A stretch of 64,000 nt of DNA from an uncultured Gemmatimonadales bacterium (GTDB lineage: Bacteria; Gemmatimonadota; Gemmatimonadetes; Longimicrobiales; Longimicrobiaceae), in NCBI GenBank assembly GCA_963716255.1, contig OY970303.1, positions 96,001 through 160,000 of the forward strand, written 5' to 3'. The position numbers are program-made. Within the stretch, counting starts at the first letter, position 1, and the number at the start of each line of letters is the position of its first letter. Positions 39,201 to 51,200 of the stretch are shown here, in pieces.

Positions 39201-42200
39201 CTGGGCCGGATGATGGACTGCTTCTACTGCCTGAGCGTATGGGTGGCGCTTCCGCTGGCCCTGTTCGTCACCCCCGCTGCGGCGGAGCGGGTGGTGGCGT
39301 GGCTCGCGGTCTCGGGCGGCGCCTGCCTGCTGGAGCGGATCGGACGCGAGCCGGTGGCGTTCACGCGGCTCGACGAACCCTGAGCGACGGAGGTGGACCG
39401 ATGGGATGCTGTGGACAGAGCCGCGCCGCGTACGGCGGCCATGACGAGGCGCGCTACCCGCAGGCGCAGCCCGCCCCCGCCCCCATGCCGTGGACGGCGG
39501 AGCCCGCGGCGGCGGCTCCCCCGGCGGGGGGGGTGCGCCTGCACTTCACCCGGCAGGCGCGGGTGCGGGTGCGGGGGCCGGTGTCGGGCACGGACTACGT
39601 GTTCTCCGGAAGCGACCCGGTGCAGAGCGTGGCCGCCGTGGACGCGGACGGGCTGCTTCGCACGGGCTACTTTCGCCGCGCGTACTGATTTGAACGGCTT
39701 TTGACGACGGATTCGGGCGTGCCCCCGGCTGGCGCCGGGGTCGGGCTTCGGCTCCGTAAGGCAGCAAACAACGCTGCCTAACGGAGTCGAGCCCCGGCGC
39801 AAACAGCCCCGCCGGGTCTCGCCCCTTCGGGCCGAAATCCCTCACGCGGGGATCACGCTGACGCCCGCAGATCCGGCGGGCGAACGGCGCCGGCCCCGCC
39901 ATCACGGATGCACCTGGCGTCTGGCAACTACCCCGCCGCCCCCACCAGCGCGTCCAGCCGCTTCGCCGAGAACCCGGCCGTCGCGCGGTCCCCTGCGACC
40001 ACCACGGGCCGCGTGATGAAGGTGTACTCCTCCTCCATCAGCCGCAGCATCTCGTCCTCGGACACCTCGTGCTCGTGCAGCCCCATGGCGCGGTACTTCA
40101 TGGCGCGCCGCGAGAACAGCTTGTCGGGCCCGCCGACGAAGTCCGCCAGCCGCCGCACTTCGTCGGCCGGGAGGCGGTCGGTCTTGAGCGGTCGACGGCC
40201 ACGCCCCTGCCCTCCAGGTACGCGACGGCCTTCTGGCAGGGGGTGCGCTCTGCATTTCCGCGTAACCACGGCATGATCTACATCCATCTCGCCACCTGAA
40301 CCGACCCCGGCCCACCAAGATTACGTCTGGTGGGCTTACGCATATGCCGACAATCCGTCGTGTGGACTGCCGATGCGTCGACGCGAACCATCCCACCAGC
40401 GCGCTCACCACTTCGCCGAAGAAAGCCAGTGGGAATCCGGGAGACCGTGGCCGACAGAACTAACGTGCCATGAGAACCCGCCGTCCATCACGGTGCGCGA
40501 GGGTTCGCCTGAACACACCTCATACACAATGCCGAAAGCGGGGAGCGCGCTTGGCCGGCCGTGACCGCGCGGAACACAGGCGGATTGCCCCGGCTATCGC
40601 GCAGAGAACCGCTACGCCATGCATCGGGATGACACGATGACAAACCAGATCAAGGTCCTCTTGCTGGCTGCCAACCCGGACAATACTACCAAACTGCACC
40701 TAGACGAGGAGGCAAGAGCCATCGCTGAAGCCATTCAATACGGGCGCGATCGCGATTCGCTCGATTTCGAGACGGCGTGGGCGGTGCGAGCCAGCGACCT
40801 GCAGCGGGTAATCCTGCACCACGAGCCCCAGATCCTGCACTTCAGCGGGCACGGCAGCAAGTCGCCGGGACTCATGATGGGAGGCGAGAACGGCGACACG
40901 CTCCCCGTCAGCGGAGAGGCGATCGCCGCCATTGTGAAGGCGGCGGCGCCCCGCATCCGGATGGTGGTCCTGAATGCCTGCCTGTCGCTCCACGTCACCC
41001 GCCGCTTCCGGAACGCCGTCGACTACACGATCGGCATGAACCAGCCGATCAGCGACCCCTCAGCGATCTGGTTCTCAGCGGCTTTCTACGGTGCGCTCGC
41101 GGCCGGTACCACGGTGGAGAAGGCATTCGAGTGGGGCATCGCCCGCCTGCTCACCCAGGGATCGAGCGAGGCCGGGGTACCCAGGCTGCTCAAGCGCAGG
41201 GGCCTTCGGACCCCGGCGGCGCTGCTTCCCGCGCCCGTACCCGAGCCAATACCCGAACCCGGACCCGCGCCCGAGCGCCTTTCGGCGCCCGCGCCGCACT
41301 ACGGCCCGAGGATCACCGCGAACGAAGTCGGAGACGTCATAACCCTCAACGGCGACAACGCCACCGTCAACACATCCCGCAAGCGATAACCCGGAGCCCG
41401 ACCACTCAGGGAGCGGAGATCATGGAGTGTCCCCGTTGCAGCATGCCAATCCCAGAAGGCGAGAATTGTCCGGTGTGCTCACTGGAGGTGCAGCCCCCCG
41501 GCGTAGAGCCACAGGCCGAGCAATGGCAGGACTCCGTTGATGAGGTCGAAGCAGCGGCAAATGCCGCCACAGCGGCCGAAGCAGCTGCGACAGCGGCCAC
41601 CGGGACGACCGCGACGACCGACGGCACGGCGTACTCGCCTTCCGACGTGGCACCGGAAGAGAGCAAGTCTGGCCCCGGCGATGTGAACGAGAATGATCCA
41701 CCGCCCGTTCCGGGATCCACCGAGATCGATGCGAACGAAGTCGGCGACGTCATCACGGTCAATGGCAACCGCGCGGCGTTCGTCGGCGCGGTGAACAATT
41801 ACAATTACTACGGCGCCACATCCGAAGTGGAAGAGGAGACGGTCGCGGCGCTGCTGGAGAAGACCACGGAGTTCGAGCTGGACAGCCTCCCCTGGGCGGC
41901 GCTGGACGCGGAGGAGGTCGCCCGCCATGCACGCGTGCTCGCGGAGGAAGGGCTCCTGCTCGTCAGCTGCGTGGACCGCTCGCTGGCCCGCGCCGCCGTT
42001 CAGGCCGTGGTCGCCGCGCTGGAGCTGGAGCCCGCGCGTGTGCGGCTCCTCGGCTTCGGCCGGTTGGGGACCGACCAGGCGTCGCTCACAATTCACGACC
42101 TGCTGAAGTGGAAAGTCGACACGGACACCCGGACGATCGTGGTGGCCGACGCCGACAGCGTGCACGCGCAGCCGTTCCTCGACTCCCTCCTGGGCAGGGA

Positions 42201-48200: not shown

Positions 48201-51200
48201 GTGATCGCGGCGCGCGGGCTAGCCGCGGCAGACGTGGACCTGGCCCTGATCCACGAGCTGGACGAGCGCAGCTCCGGCTACCTAGCCGGGCTGGCGGCCC
48301 AGGGCGAGAGCCGAATGGACTTGGACAGGCTGGAGCGTACCCTGGTTCCCAACAACCCGGCGGCCCCCGTGCCCGGCCCCATCCGCATCTTCCAGCAGGT
48401 CTGCAAGGAAGCGCGGGACCGCCGGTTCGAGTCGGCGAGCACACTGGTGCAGCCGTATCGGGACGAGGCCACGGAAGACCTCTTCCGCCTGCAGAACCTG
48501 CAGAAGATCGCGCTCTGGATGGGCATCCTGGGCACCTTCGTGGGACTGCTGATCGCCCTGCGGGAAAGCGGCGGGACCGTGGTGAGCGACGGCGCGCTCA
48601 CCGCGCTGGTGGAGGAGATGTACGGCGGCCTCTTCGTATCGTTCACGGCCAGCGTCGCCGGCCTGGAGGTGGCGATCATCCTGAGCTTCGTCCTGCTGCT
48701 GCTGCGCAAGCGCCAGGAGCTGTGCTTCGCCCGGATGGAGAGCGTGGCCGTGACGTTGCTGTCGGCCGCGCGGCACGCCATCAACCACGACGACTTCATC
48801 CACGAGTTCGCGCAGGTGAACACCACCGTCCGCGACCTCGCCAACCGGGTCCACGAGCAGACCCGGGGCATCGTCGACCGGCTGAACGGGGTGGAGTCGC
48901 GACTGTGGGATCAGAACGAGCGGATCGACGCCGGGCTAGAGCGGCTGGCCGGAGCGCGGAGCGAGTTCGAGCGCTTCCTGCAGAACGTGAGCGACGCCGA
49001 ACACCAGTTCCTCGGCGAGCTGGCCAGGCTCTTCGAGGCCGCGTCGTTCCGGGACCTGGCCCAGACCCTCCATGATGGCACACGCGAGGTGGGGGATCGA
49101 CTGACCGGGCGGCTGGACGACATGACGTCACGCAACGCCGCGCAGCTGGAGGCGTTCGACGCGTCCGTGCAAGCACTCACGGCCGCCGTGCAGGCCCAAT
49201 CGGCCGGGTTCGCGGCCAGTGTGGACCGCCTGGAGAGGGAGGTCACCGCGACCTCCGCGCGCAACGCCGAGGCGGTCCTGGCCGCATGTGCACGGTTAGC
49301 GTCGGTGGCAGAGCGGCTCCAGGGCGGCCCGAGATCGAGCGCGGCCGTGCTGGAACTGCTCGCGTCTCGTCTGGCGGAGCTGGACCGCACGCTCCGCCGG
49401 CAGACGTCGCCCAGGCTGCGCAACCTCCTGGTCTCCATCGTCCCCAGCGGGTGGAGGAACGGCGCCGGCAGCCACCGGTGAGGCGCCGACCCACCAAAGT
49501 GGAAGGGTACCATGCGATCCTCGCTCCACCTGAACGACGACACCAACCAGTTCGGTCCCGGCTCCGACCTGATGATCTCACTGGCCGCCGTGCTGCTGAT
49601 GCTGACGGTGATCGTCTCGCACCTGTATGGACGAGAGCGGCTGCGGGCGGAGGAAGACAGGGCGAAGTACGAGACCTTGCGAACGGACTACGTGCGGGAC
49701 AGCACGCGCTTCGAGGAGCAGAGGGCGAGGTTTGCGCGGGATGTCGCCGCGGGGGGCTCGTTCCGCGTGGCAACGGCGTCCGTCCCCGCCGCCGATTTCC
49801 ATCCCTACCCCGTCACCCGGCTGGTCAGGCCCGAGCAGACGGAGCTGCGCGTGCAGCAGATCGTGGCGGAGTACCGGCGGCAGGACTACCCGTACATCTT
49901 CGTGATCGGCCACTCCAGCGCCACCGACGATCCCGCGGCCGCGGATCGCAGCCACCGCGCGCGGCTCCAGCGGAACTGGGAGTACGCGGGGCGCCGTGCC
50001 GCGCTCGTCGCCGCGCTTGTCGAGCCGCACCTAACGGAGGCGGAGCGCGGCGGGCTCGTGGTGATGACCATGGGCGAGCTCGACATGCGCGATCCCGCCA
50101 ACCCGCTGTCACAGGAGAATGCATGGGTCGAGGTCGTCTTCGGAAAGGAGTGGAAGCCCCCGTCGCGGGCTGCCGGGAGGTGACCCGGTCACGGGGCCGG
50201 GGAAGCTCCGGCTCACCTCCCGGCCAGGAGCGCGTCCAGCCGCTTCGTGGAGAACCCGGCCGTCGCGCGGTCCCCTGCGACCACCACGGGCCGCGTGATG
50301 AAGGTGTACTCCTCCTCCATCAGCCGCAGCATCTCGTCCTCGGACACTTCGCGCTCGTGCAGCCCCATGGCGCGGTACTTCATGGCGCGCCGCGAGAACA
50401 GCTTGTCGGGCCCGCCGACGAGGTCCGCCAGCCGCCGCACCTCGTCGGCCGGGAGGCGGTCGGTCTTGAGGTCGTGGAAGCGGTCGACGGCCACGCCCCT
50501 GCCCTCCAGGTATGCGACGGCCTTCTGGCAGGTGGTGCAGTACGGCAGCCCGTAGACGGTTACGCCCATTGTGTCATCCAGAGGTGAGTGTGTGTGTAGT
50601 TGACGTTCGCCGTTCCGCAGTACCCCCATGGTCCGTTGCGGAGGGAGACTCGCCGGCTGTTTGGCGAGGCTCCCTCCGGCGCAGGGAGACCCGGAGGCAG
50701 TTTTCCGGGGCTCCCGGAGCCCGCGTAGGAAACAGGCCGGCAGTTTGGCCTGGTTCCGGAGCGGCCCCGGCGCGCCCAAAGCAGAAGGCCGCCCCAAACA
50801 ATAGAGCGGCCCCCGATCTTCCAGGTACGAGCTCGCGACAAAAAACTACGCCGCCGAGTGCGCCGTCGCCTGGAACTCCGCGCACAGCGCGTGCACCTCG
50901 TCGTCCGAAAACGTGTGGTCGCAGCGCTTTGCCGCCTCGAACACGTGGCTGCTGAGCCGGTCGTCCGACACGTCGTACCCGTGCTGCACCAGCCAGTAGC
51001 GCACGTTGCTGATGCCGCTCATGTGCGACACCTCGATGCGCTGCCGCAGCCCGAACAGCCCCGCCGGCACCCCCGAGTACACCCGGTCCGCCAGCCAGGC
51101 GTCGCCCTTGGACTCGGCCTTGATGATGGCGGCGGCGTGCACCCCCGTGGCCGTGCGGAAGGCGTCCGACCCGAAGACGGGCCAGTTGTACGGCAGCGGC

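Follow-up and report, generated by a model that had tools for sequence, protein, structure and literature searches.

Results

An accessory five-gene cassette lies at arsC

In the 64,000-nucleotide window that we analyzed (the whole stretch of DNA, from an uncultured Gemmatimonadales bacterium; all positions count along it), we found five plus-strand genes, g87 to g91, between two copies of an arsC end:

39947..40246, minus strand: partial arsC 3' end, a displaced copy with a 10-nt deletion; left edge of the insertion
40637..41389, plus strand: g87, small CHAT (caspase-like) protease effector, 250 aa (Pfam CHAT, E 3e-9)
41312..41362, plus strand: effector-side motif, g87 aa 226-242, ITANEVGDVITLNGDNA; predicted amyloid/beta-arch signalling motif
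41422..44037, plus strand: g88, 871 aa, modelled as an inactive STAND/NLR-like protein (AF2, Foldseek, VIA, family alignment)
41725..41775, plus strand: putative receptor-side motif, g88 aa 102-118, IDANEVGDVITVNGNRA (motif pairing, tail profile)
44053..47982, plus strand: g89, predicted cytoplasmic poly-SPFH protein, 1309 aa (Band_7, E 2e-8; AF2 model of the homologue from locus L006; Foldseek/VIA; unit map)
47979..49481, plus strand: g90, ZorA/MotA-like motor subunit, 500 aa (PADLOC ZorA; invariant T186 and S225)
49512..50183, plus strand: g91, ZorB/MotB-like subunit, 223 aa (invariant D19 and N155/R162; homologue from locus L113, OmpA E 2e-10)
50213..50569, minus strand: intact arsC-family gene (Pfam ArsC, E 1e-15); right edge of the insertion

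The genome-wide survey's note had reported these five open reading frames, the arsC end duplication, the CHAT domain of g87, the Band_7 match and internal duplication of g89, the likeness of g90 to ZorA/MotA and 42 homologues of g90, and all of these were recovered. The duplicated arsC ends (39947-40246 and 50229-50538) are identical at 292 of 300 positions, with the 10-nt gap in the left copy. In two same-genus genomes (G401 and G405) the flanks are joined through a single arsC, representing the empty site; the cassette was absent from the eight same-genus genomes searched, and no second copy was found elsewhere in its own genome. The cassette is thus an accessory element inserted at arsC. 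Its distribution is patchy: it occurred in none of 400 genomes of the same phylum, and in 10 and 9 of 251 in two classes of Acidobacteriota. As a single sequence g90 found no match in metagenomes, whereas a g90 alignment did. Viral contigs returned one 54-residue match, without system genes and not a true homologue, and plasmids returned no match for g90 or g89.

The motor is optional, and the effector is swappable

To describe gene order, we used 45 g90-anchored loci (30 from metagenomes and 15 from genomes, some of them near-duplicates) and counted only those whose contig reaches the neighbour position. The order g88-g89-g90-g91 proposed earlier was borne out, with g89 preceding g90 in 38 of 40 loci, g88 upstream in 31 of 32 and g91 downstream in all 42; one locus (L013) lacks g89 and another (L043) keeps only a remnant of it. 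The stop and start codons of g89 and g90 overlap. Seen from g88, the picture differs: the motor lies beside g88 in only 8 of 20 g88-anchored loci and is missing in 11, the last being unresolved at a contig end, so signalling from motor to g88 is not obligatory. Five loci consist of effector, g88 and g89 with no motor adjoining and none found in those genomes, for which a positive control was run. On a quick tree of g88 the motor label changes about five times, compatible with either gain or loss of the motor. In motor-less relatives the candidate input module is DUF4407 with a kinase, or a DO-GTPase. The neighbouring genes scanned were mostly CHAT, TPR and kinase signalling genes, and not classical defence genes.

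The leading CHAT gene described in the survey's note is present, and is more frequent than its count of seven by blast: among the loci that include the g88 5' end, 18 of 24 have a CHAT gene upstream on the same strand, and three more have a divergent one. The notion that the effector is always CHAT did not hold, since effectors bearing the C-terminal tail comprise CHAT, TIR_2, a cyclase-like protein (E 8e-5) and caspase C14; no Bell effector was seen among the loci examined. In g87 the HFSGHG and LNAC motifs, which we take to be those of the His/Cys catalytic dyad, are intact and are followed by a proline-rich linker and the C-terminal signalling motif. GHG and N[AGS]C motifs occur in 17 of 18 CHAT effectors, g87 included, the exception (L006) having GLG. 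The first gene is therefore a swappable effector (CHAT, caspase C14, TIR or cyclase), and the constant core is this effector plus the inactive STAND protein g88, usually with the SPFH protein, to which the motor is an optional addition.

g90 and g91 resemble the ZorAB motor

In g90, family hydropathy predicts four transmembrane segments followed by a cytoplasmic tail of about 258 aa (229-313 aa in 36 of the 39 family members that could be measured), which we infer to be helical from coiled-coil-type matches. The PADLOC ZorA model matches g90 (E 4.9e-7 and 7e-7) and 20 of 21 family members (best E 4e-10); Pfam MotA_ExbB reaches E 4e-4, below its cut-off, the NCBIfam ZorA score is far under threshold (21 bits against 100), and a profile of the transmembrane part returned ZorA chains as its first five PDB matches, all weak (E 0.04-0.3). 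T186, in a GILGT motif, and S225 do not vary in the family and correspond in the alignment to T147 and S184 of E. coli ZorA. For g91, a single transmembrane segment is preceded by an invariant D19 and followed by an OmpA-like domain whose invariant N155 and R162 have the spacing of N152 and R159 in ZorB (ZorA and ZorB residues from PMC11946911). Pfam OmpA scores only E 0.13 on g91 itself; the L113 homologues pass the Pfam cut-offs for both MotA_ExbB and OmpA. By alignment, g90 and g91 retain the ion-path and peptidoglycan-binding residues of ZorA and ZorB. The ZorAB-like motor is thereby on firmer ground than before, given the invariant Thr/Ser filter, Asp and N...R residues and the L113 homologues.

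g89 is predicted to be a poly-SPFH chain and g88 an inactive STAND protein

The internal duplication of g89 is in frame and spans 1656 nt (44515-46170 and 46171-47826, 93% identical). Its relatives carry five SPFH units and a coiled coil in about 750 aa; here the order is SPFH1 followed by two copies of SPFH2-5 plus coiled coil, giving nine units. These counts are based on model secondary structure, on the folds that units 3 and 4 matched, and on unit maps; profile-profile comparison of the five units was weak (probability 0.3-18%), and Band_7 matches 11 of 28 family members. In the AF2 model of the L006 homologue, single domains matched prohibitin, stomatin, HflK/C and flotillin (Foldseek/VIA, Z 10-12, rmsd about 2.5 Å). 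No hydrophobic segment that could serve as a transmembrane segment or N-terminal anchor was found by hydropathy in the 28-row family. The models thus describe g89 as a cytoplasmic chain of five SPFH domains, nine in the window, that lacks a transmembrane segment. SPFH folds also occur in membrane quality control and motor support, with HflK/C and FliL among the fold matches. A correspondence between five SPFH units and five ZorA chains was set aside, as the window has nine units and the model pTM is 0.51.

The AF2 model of g88 (pLDDT 78, pTM 0.73) suggests an N-terminal CxxC..CxxC zinc ribbon, a disordered linker holding the motif, a STAND/AAA+ domain (aa ~141-366), a helical/beta region and helical repeats. 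Its best Foldseek matches are SAMD9, NLRP9, Avs3, Avs5, Apaf-1 and CED-4, with modest whole-chain values (E 2e-5 at best, TM ~0.2), VIA aligned it with AAA+ domains at Z 9-10, and in the Atlas the family has nSTAND3 as a neighbour at 0.96, the family being on 14% of members. Walker A is degenerate in all 26 rows that cover it, the loop reading hhhh-S-C-x-D, and only 3 of 149 homologues have a GxxxxGK[ST] pattern at any position. As modelled, g88 is STAND/NLR-like and its P-loop is dead. PDB searches from sequence alone yielded no clear match for g88, g89 or g91, and no known defence-system model matches these three. One homologue (P0062, 1209 aa) was considered as an effector-STAND fusion and rejected, as it holds only a long low-complexity linker.

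Effector tails and g88 N-termini carry matching motifs

The last ~17-25 aa of the effectors form an N/G/V/I-rich motif with a counterpart at the g88 N-terminus; in the window, 13 of 17 residues are identical between the two. When the tail profile was run against 49,225 open reading frame pieces of the genome, the g87 and g88 motifs were the only two matches. Across 21 pairs, the motif score averaged 45 on the own locus and 29 on the others (0 of 100,000 permutations as high), and the own lineage scored best in 8 of 11 lineages. In a held-out test on eight loci found via g88, the own g88 ranked first of 29 in six (exact p = 6/40,320, 1.5e-4); in one of the others, L116, it ranked 18th of 29. 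Not every pair is distinctive: 8 of 21 scored no better than shuffles of their own g88 N-region, and in only 12 of 21 did the own g88 score above its nearest relative, as related loci have motif types in common. The three divergent-strand CHAT proteins scored 18, 21 and 27 on their own g88, which was not the top match. Overall, an effector tail matches the motif of its own g88 better than those of others. A recent chance duplication as the origin of the window pair is disfavoured, because 5 of 13 conserved codons differ synonymously and lineages pair different motifs.

The tail motif is enriched in N (x3.9), G (x2.3), V (x1.9) and I (x1.7) and depleted in P and L (x0.3). Bacterial amyloid signalling (BASS) motifs are described as ~25 aa long, rich in N/G/Q/V/I and poor in K/P/L (10.1101/2020.01.06.895854); unlike these, ours are neither Q-rich (x1.1) nor K-poor (x1.2). 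The layout of effector and g88 motifs is that of BASS, and from sequence we predict an amyloid. In the AF2 monomer the g88 motif is a low-confidence helix (pLDDT 34-54), and complex prediction of the two peptides (score 0.02) gave no answer either way. In one of 109 g88 homologues scanned (P0144), an EAD8 adaptor occupies the motif slot (E 5e-21); EADs are proposed homotypic adaptors (PMC7159879). A search of the genome itself for EAD8 found no match, and its control was silent too.

Relation to known systems

Zorya types I-III (PMC11946911, PMC11890865) share with g90 the likeness to MotA, the transmembrane Thr/Ser filter and a long cytoplasmic tail, and with g91 a MotB-like subunit with an essential Asp and an OmpA-like peptidoglycan-binding domain, the motor genes being adjacent in one operon. 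The cassette differs in its four predicted transmembrane segments, against three in ZorA, in scores far under curated ZorA cut-offs, and in its partners: a poly-SPFH protein, an inactive STAND and protease, TIR or cyclase effectors stand in place of ZorC/D, ZorE or ZorF/G, and no Zor model in PADLOC or NCBIfam matches g87-g89. The survey's note had proposed a new Zorya type in which the motor signals through SPFH to the protease. A ZorAB-like motor, an SPFH scaffold and a caspase-like effector are supported; the hierarchy is inverted, with the motor in only 8 of 20 g88 loci, and the protease is likely reached via g88, paired with it by short motifs, and not directly from SPFH. Since effector and g88 are constant and the motor is optional, the cassette is a conflict system built of effector, STAND and SPFH that has a ZorAB-like input, and is not by definition a Zorya type.

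As with BASS NLR-effector pairs and the Bab/Agp BASS11 antiphage system, an N/G/V/I-rich motif stands N-terminally in an NLR-like protein and C-terminally in the adjacent effector. Of the four BASS effectors other than Bell, three are the CHAT, TIR2 and cyclase types, and BASS and BASS11 motifs were shown to form fibrils (10.1101/2020.01.06.895854, 10.1101/2024.11.07.622273). Unlike in BASS, the motif of g88 follows a zinc ribbon, the protein itself is a putative pseudo-NTPase coupled to SPFH and to a membrane motor, no Bell effector was seen in the cassette loci, the amyloid is predicted from sequence, and the named hosts, besides the present genome, are Acidobacteriota, where those sources name Actinobacteria, Cyanobacteria and E. 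coli. The iSTAND MoxR-vWA ternary and DO-GTPase systems (PMC7159879) likewise have a constant inactive STAND and caspase-like, TIR and cyclase effectors, and share with the g88 family EAD8 on one homologue and DO-GTPase2 beside some. In the cassette, motor and poly-SPFH occupy the switch position; no MoxR-vWA pair was found in the window cassette or among 78 locus genes scanned, and the main text of PMC7159879 does not mention MotA. SPFH cage proteins (stomatin, prohibitin, flotillin, HflK/C, FliL and major vault protein) share with g89 an SPFH fold followed by a coiled coil, and differ from its five (here nine) units per chain without a membrane anchor. In the literature searched we found no description of such a cassette.

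Discussion

Starting from gene content and order, the ion-path residues of the motor, the fold predictions, a dead P-loop, the matching of cognate motifs, the swapping of effectors and an optional motor, we favour on balance a mobile cassette whose ZorAB-like motor likely detects disturbance of the envelope, probably by phage, and would act via poly-SPFH to cluster a dead STAND, whose motif would template the CHAT tail into an amyloid-like form, likely leading to cell death. By analogy to ZorAB, g90 and g91 would assemble 5:2 into a proton-driven motor with a peptidoglycan anchor. The target of the ~39-nm g90 tail would be g89, which may oligomerise through its tandem SPFH domains and coiled coil. 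Unable to bind NTP normally, g88 would be clustered by this scaffold and not by ligand-driven nucleotide exchange; its motifs, once clustered, could seed cross-beta stacking with the effector tails, and the caspase-like protease (TIR or cyclase in other loci) would be activated by proximity, resulting in abortive infection or dormancy. In motor-less relatives the input may come from DUF4407 and kinase, or from DO-GTPase. A bolder version, which we hold only tentatively, is that mechanical action of a proton-driven 5:2 rotary motor would nucleate an inflammasome-like assembly. By rotating, the ZorA-like tail would gather poly-SPFH and a nucleotide-blind NLR, switched by mechanical or envelope input instead of ligand and ATP exchange, whose amyloid motif would seed the protease; inputs (motor, DUF4407-kinase, DO-GTPase) as well as outputs (CHAT, caspase, TIR, cyclase) would be plug-in parts, set by co-varying amyloid 'passwords'.

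The same wiring might instead end in finite docking, the motifs pairing as beta-strands or a beta-helix in the manner of an EAD-like homotypic adaptor and not as a self-propagating amyloid; a recruited effector would then act locally like ZorD or ZorE, possibly without killing the cell. The EAD8 replacement in P0144, the loose match of several motif pairs and the description of Type I Zorya defence as direct and non-abortive (PMC11946911) lend this a minor but real chance, against which the length and N/G/V/I bias of the motif, its terminal site after a proline-rich linker and the effector set all mirror fibril-forming BASS and BASS11. It is unlikely, in our judgment, that the cassette answers insults to the envelope other than phage (predatory bacteria, contact-dependent secretion systems, lytic enzymes or lost proton motive force) or serves developmental regulated proteolysis. 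As is typical of conflict systems, the cassette is patchily distributed, sits at a duplicated insertion site, swaps its effectors and decays often, and the nearest motor relatives are ZorA, although the lack of defence-model matches for g88, g89 and g91, the roles of SPFH folds noted above, the signalling character of the neighbours and the lack of true homologues among viral contigs or plasmids would suit such a role. That the two motor genes are a Zorya-derived module of their own, travelling with the operon and not signalling to it, as the five motor-less loci and the motor-label changes on the quick tree might suggest, is very improbable given a linkage that, seen from the motor, is near absolute across g90 identities down to 28%, the overlapping g89/g90 codons and the lack of any ZorC-G-like gene alongside the motor.

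If true, the envelope-triggered, amyloid-templating reading that we favour would join two immune strategies known only apart, ZorAB-type envelope sensing and amyloid/NLR signalling to caspase-like death effectors. The role of ZorA tail rotation, an open question, would become directly testable through motif seeding and protease cleavage. The analysis also reveals a large unannotated family of putatively inactive STAND proteins (834 clusters at 50% identity) and a predicted poly-SPFH protein without transmembrane segments. The natural cognate and non-cognate motif pairs may provide a specificity series for amyloid signalling in Acidobacteriota, beyond the filamentous taxa of the first BASS motifs.

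A conserved five-gene cassette inserted at arsC

The plus-strand genes g87 to g91, encoding a CHAT effector, a STAND/NLR-like protein, a poly-SPFH protein and a ZorA/MotA-like and ZorB/MotB-like motor pair, form a real, conserved cassette of undescribed architecture. The five ORFs lie where the genome-wide survey's note had placed them, and we recovered the same domain matches. They are bounded on one side by an intact arsC-family gene and on the other by 300 nt duplicated from the 3' end of that gene (292/300 identical). Among five same-genus genomes searched, G401 had the left and right flanks contiguous via one arsC and G405 had arsC directly after the left flank; therefore, 40247-50228 is an insertion. 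Besides the five genes, no integrase-sized ORF was found within it. A search of eight same-genus genomes did not find g90 (best stray match E 1e-5), and a strict first look found g88 in 0 of 400 own-phylum genomes, a floor value. The arsC site is flanked by members of two dispersed repeat families in intergenic DNA (39694-39869 and 50599-50770), for which blastn shows no relation to one another. Both are REP/MITE-like; the own genome gives 847 BLAST hits for one and 218 for the other (at least 120 nt long in 810 and 211 cases), and same-genus genomes give dozens. Two genes are kept beside arsC in G405:

36413-39073, plus strand, ORF rich in Cys (at most 886 aa), no Pfam match
39075-39383, plus strand, DUF1360 gene, directly after the Cys-rich ORF

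With an alignment of 39 g90 homologues as query, we obtained 30 loci from metagenomes and 15 from genomes, several of them near-duplicates, with Acidobacteriota as the named hosts. Where contigs reach, the gene order reported in the note is kept: g89 precedes g90 in 38/40, g88 does so in 31/32, and g91 follows in 42/42. The exceptions are L013, where g89 is lost, and L043, with only a g89-like remnant (judged by eye). In Thermoanaerobaculia-type loci the gene next to the end of g91 is repeatedly of Nal1_C type (trypsin-like by eye; Pfam match in 3/5), which may give the system a second protease. Extra CHAT proteins, fused to pentapeptide, TPR or HEAT repeats, also often adjoin the cassette.

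Genes adjoining the cassette in g90-anchored loci
L018:12168-13109, Nal1_C-type
L042:8780-9757, Nal1_C-type
L043:12092-13009, Nal1_C-type
L044:12027-13004, Nal1_C-type
L045:1943-2920, Nal1_C-type
L016:12219-14426, extra CHAT
L022:12081-14330, extra CHAT
L039:12107-14323, extra CHAT
L015:5776-7791, extra CHAT
L006:8599-12312, extra CHAT
L030:2897-3823, extra CHAT

Motor, scaffold and inactive STAND

For g90, four TM segments are predicted, against three helices in ZorA; a tail of 258 aa follows them (229-313 aa in 36/39 homologues). T186 and S225 are invariant in the family; in E. coli ZorA they align with T147 and S184, which PMC11946911 describes as the ion filter. The top five PDB matches of a g90 profile without the coiled tail were ZorA-type chains, all weak (E 0.04-0.3), and a PADLOC ZorA model matched 20/21 members, with g90 nowhere near curated ZorA cut-offs. 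g91 has one TM segment, an invariant D19, and invariant N155 and R162 spaced like ZorB N152 and R159 (residues from PMC11946911); it adjoins an OmpA cluster in the Atlas (0.92). A distant g90/g91 homologue pair (L113) exceeds the Pfam cut-offs for MotA_ExbB and OmpA.

g89 in the window comprises nine SPFH units, lacks a TM segment and contains an in-frame tandem duplication (1656 nt, 93% identical), of which its relatives (~750 aa) hold a single copy. The model of its L006 homologue (pLDDT 86, pTM 0.51) is made up of five beta-beta-alpha-alpha-alpha-beta units plus a coiled coil, and resembles prohibitin, stomatin, HflK/C and flotillin by Foldseek and VIA (Z 10-12; units 3 and 4 compared directly). 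The AF2 model of g88 (pLDDT 78, pTM 0.73) contains a zinc ribbon, a disordered linker, an AAA+-type domain (~141-366, Z 9-10) and helical repeats, and its best Foldseek matches are mostly STAND/NLR proteins (SAMD9, NLRP9, Avs3, NLRP14, Avs5, Apaf-1 and CED-4; E 2e-5 to 4e-3). In 26/26 rows of the family alignment the P-loop has shrunk to hhhh-S-C-x-D, and g88 is therefore an inactive STAND. The family, which is without annotation, spans 834 clusters at E<=1e-3 and 537 at 1e-30.

Effectors and g88 share a motif

The C-terminal end of g87 (ITANEVGDVITLNGDNA) and g88 aa 102-118 (IDANEVGDVITVNGNRA) are identical at 13/17 residues, and 5/13 shared codons differ silently. This paired motif was absent from the first reading; its layout is that of bacterial amyloid signalling (BASS) pairs, and the antiphage pair Bab/Agp is laid out in the same way (10.1101/2024.11.07.622273). 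Across the 24 loci that include the g88 5' end, the gene upstream of g88 encodes a same-strand CHAT protein in 18 (13 small, 5 large), a divergently transcribed CHAT in three, a TIR protein in two (one scanned) and a product without assignment in one. At L009:4894-5835 and L011:3897-4943, a cyclase-like gene with a helical middle part and an effector-type tail motif follows g91 instead of preceding g88. The non-Bell effectors of BASS listed in 10.1101/2020.01.06.895854 are hydrolase, TIR2, CHAT and cyclase.

For 21 pairs, the final 45 residues of the effector were scored against the N-regions of all the g88 proteins. L047, whose g88 is broken, was excluded, as were the three divergent loci, whose CHAT tails had no match to their own g88. 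The own-locus mean was 45, against 29 for others (0/100,000 permutations); 13/21 pairs exceeded shuffles and 8/21 did not. The g88 of the same locus outscored its nearest relative in only 12/21 pairs, and was best in 8/11 after collapse to lineages. Among eight held-out loci found via g88 (of 13 fetched, the other five showing no adjacent effector), own g88 ranked first of 29 in six (one tie), second in one and 18th in one (exact p 6/40,320), with whole g88 as target in four of the eight. An effector-tail profile placed 12 of its top 14 matches among 73 system proteins in g88 N-regions, at low scores; in the own genome, its sole matches were the motifs of g87 and g88. That genome has a second small CHAT gene (G000:C1:6675948-6676517, 36% identical to g87), where the tail-motif profile had no match.

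The tail motif is rich in N, G, V, I and T, poor in P and L, and neither Q-rich nor K-poor. In one of 109 g88 homologues scanned (P0144, aa 6-99) its slot holds EAD8, and EADs are proposed homotypic adaptors (PMC7159879). Finite homotypic docking of the matched motifs is accordingly conceivable, if unlikely; we prefer amyloid-like templating.

Relation to known systems

The proposal of a new Zorya-type system is supported in part: the input would work in a Zorya-like manner, and the cassette does not belong to Zorya I-III, whose partner genes (PMC11890865) differ. The output would work like that of BASS/NLR systems, and the cassette is no member of the MoxR-vWA iSTAND systems. Our literature searches gave no description of it, and none of the terms MotA, Zorya and SPFH occurs in PMC8195603; its neighbourhoods or a matching BASS family could still be listed in subscription papers, bioRxiv supplements or the source data of Kaur 2020. 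That the cassette answers a non-phage envelope stress seems to us rather improbable, somewhat more so than docking.

An optional motor and a proposed mechanism

The motor is optional to the cassette. A g88 search found 10/251 and 9/251 genomes in two Acidobacteriota classes and gave 20 loci. Eight have the motor: seven already in the g90-anchored set (same contig and coordinates), plus L113. Five carry effector-g88-g89 without it, and their genomes gave no g90-family match, whereas control genomes did. Three of these operons adjoin DUF4407, a candidate alternative membrane input. In three further loci g88 is followed by the gene of an ~820-aa DO-GTPase-type protein (Pfam match in two) and two unknown genes, with no g89/SPFH; they are a second sub-system built on the same inactive STAND. 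Of the remaining four, one stops at a contig edge and three have different partners or none. A quick g88 tree needs about five changes of the motor label, by gain or loss.

Loci without the motor
L106:9885-12246, DUF4407 and kinase
L108:10939-11976, DUF4407
L109:12458-14718, DUF4407 and kinase
L110:432-9404, g88 and DO-GTPase type
L111:3938-11092, g88 and DO-GTPase type
L115:2253-10940, g88 and DO-GTPase type

A motor pair not linked to the rest of the cassette is, in our view, very improbable. We lean towards a chain whose dynamic steps we infer throughout: the motor would detect envelope disturbance, the poly-SPFH scaffold would gather the inactive STAND into clusters, the matched motifs of g88 and effector would template each other in an amyloid-like manner, and the protease, TIR or cyclase would be switched on, so that the cell arrests or dies.
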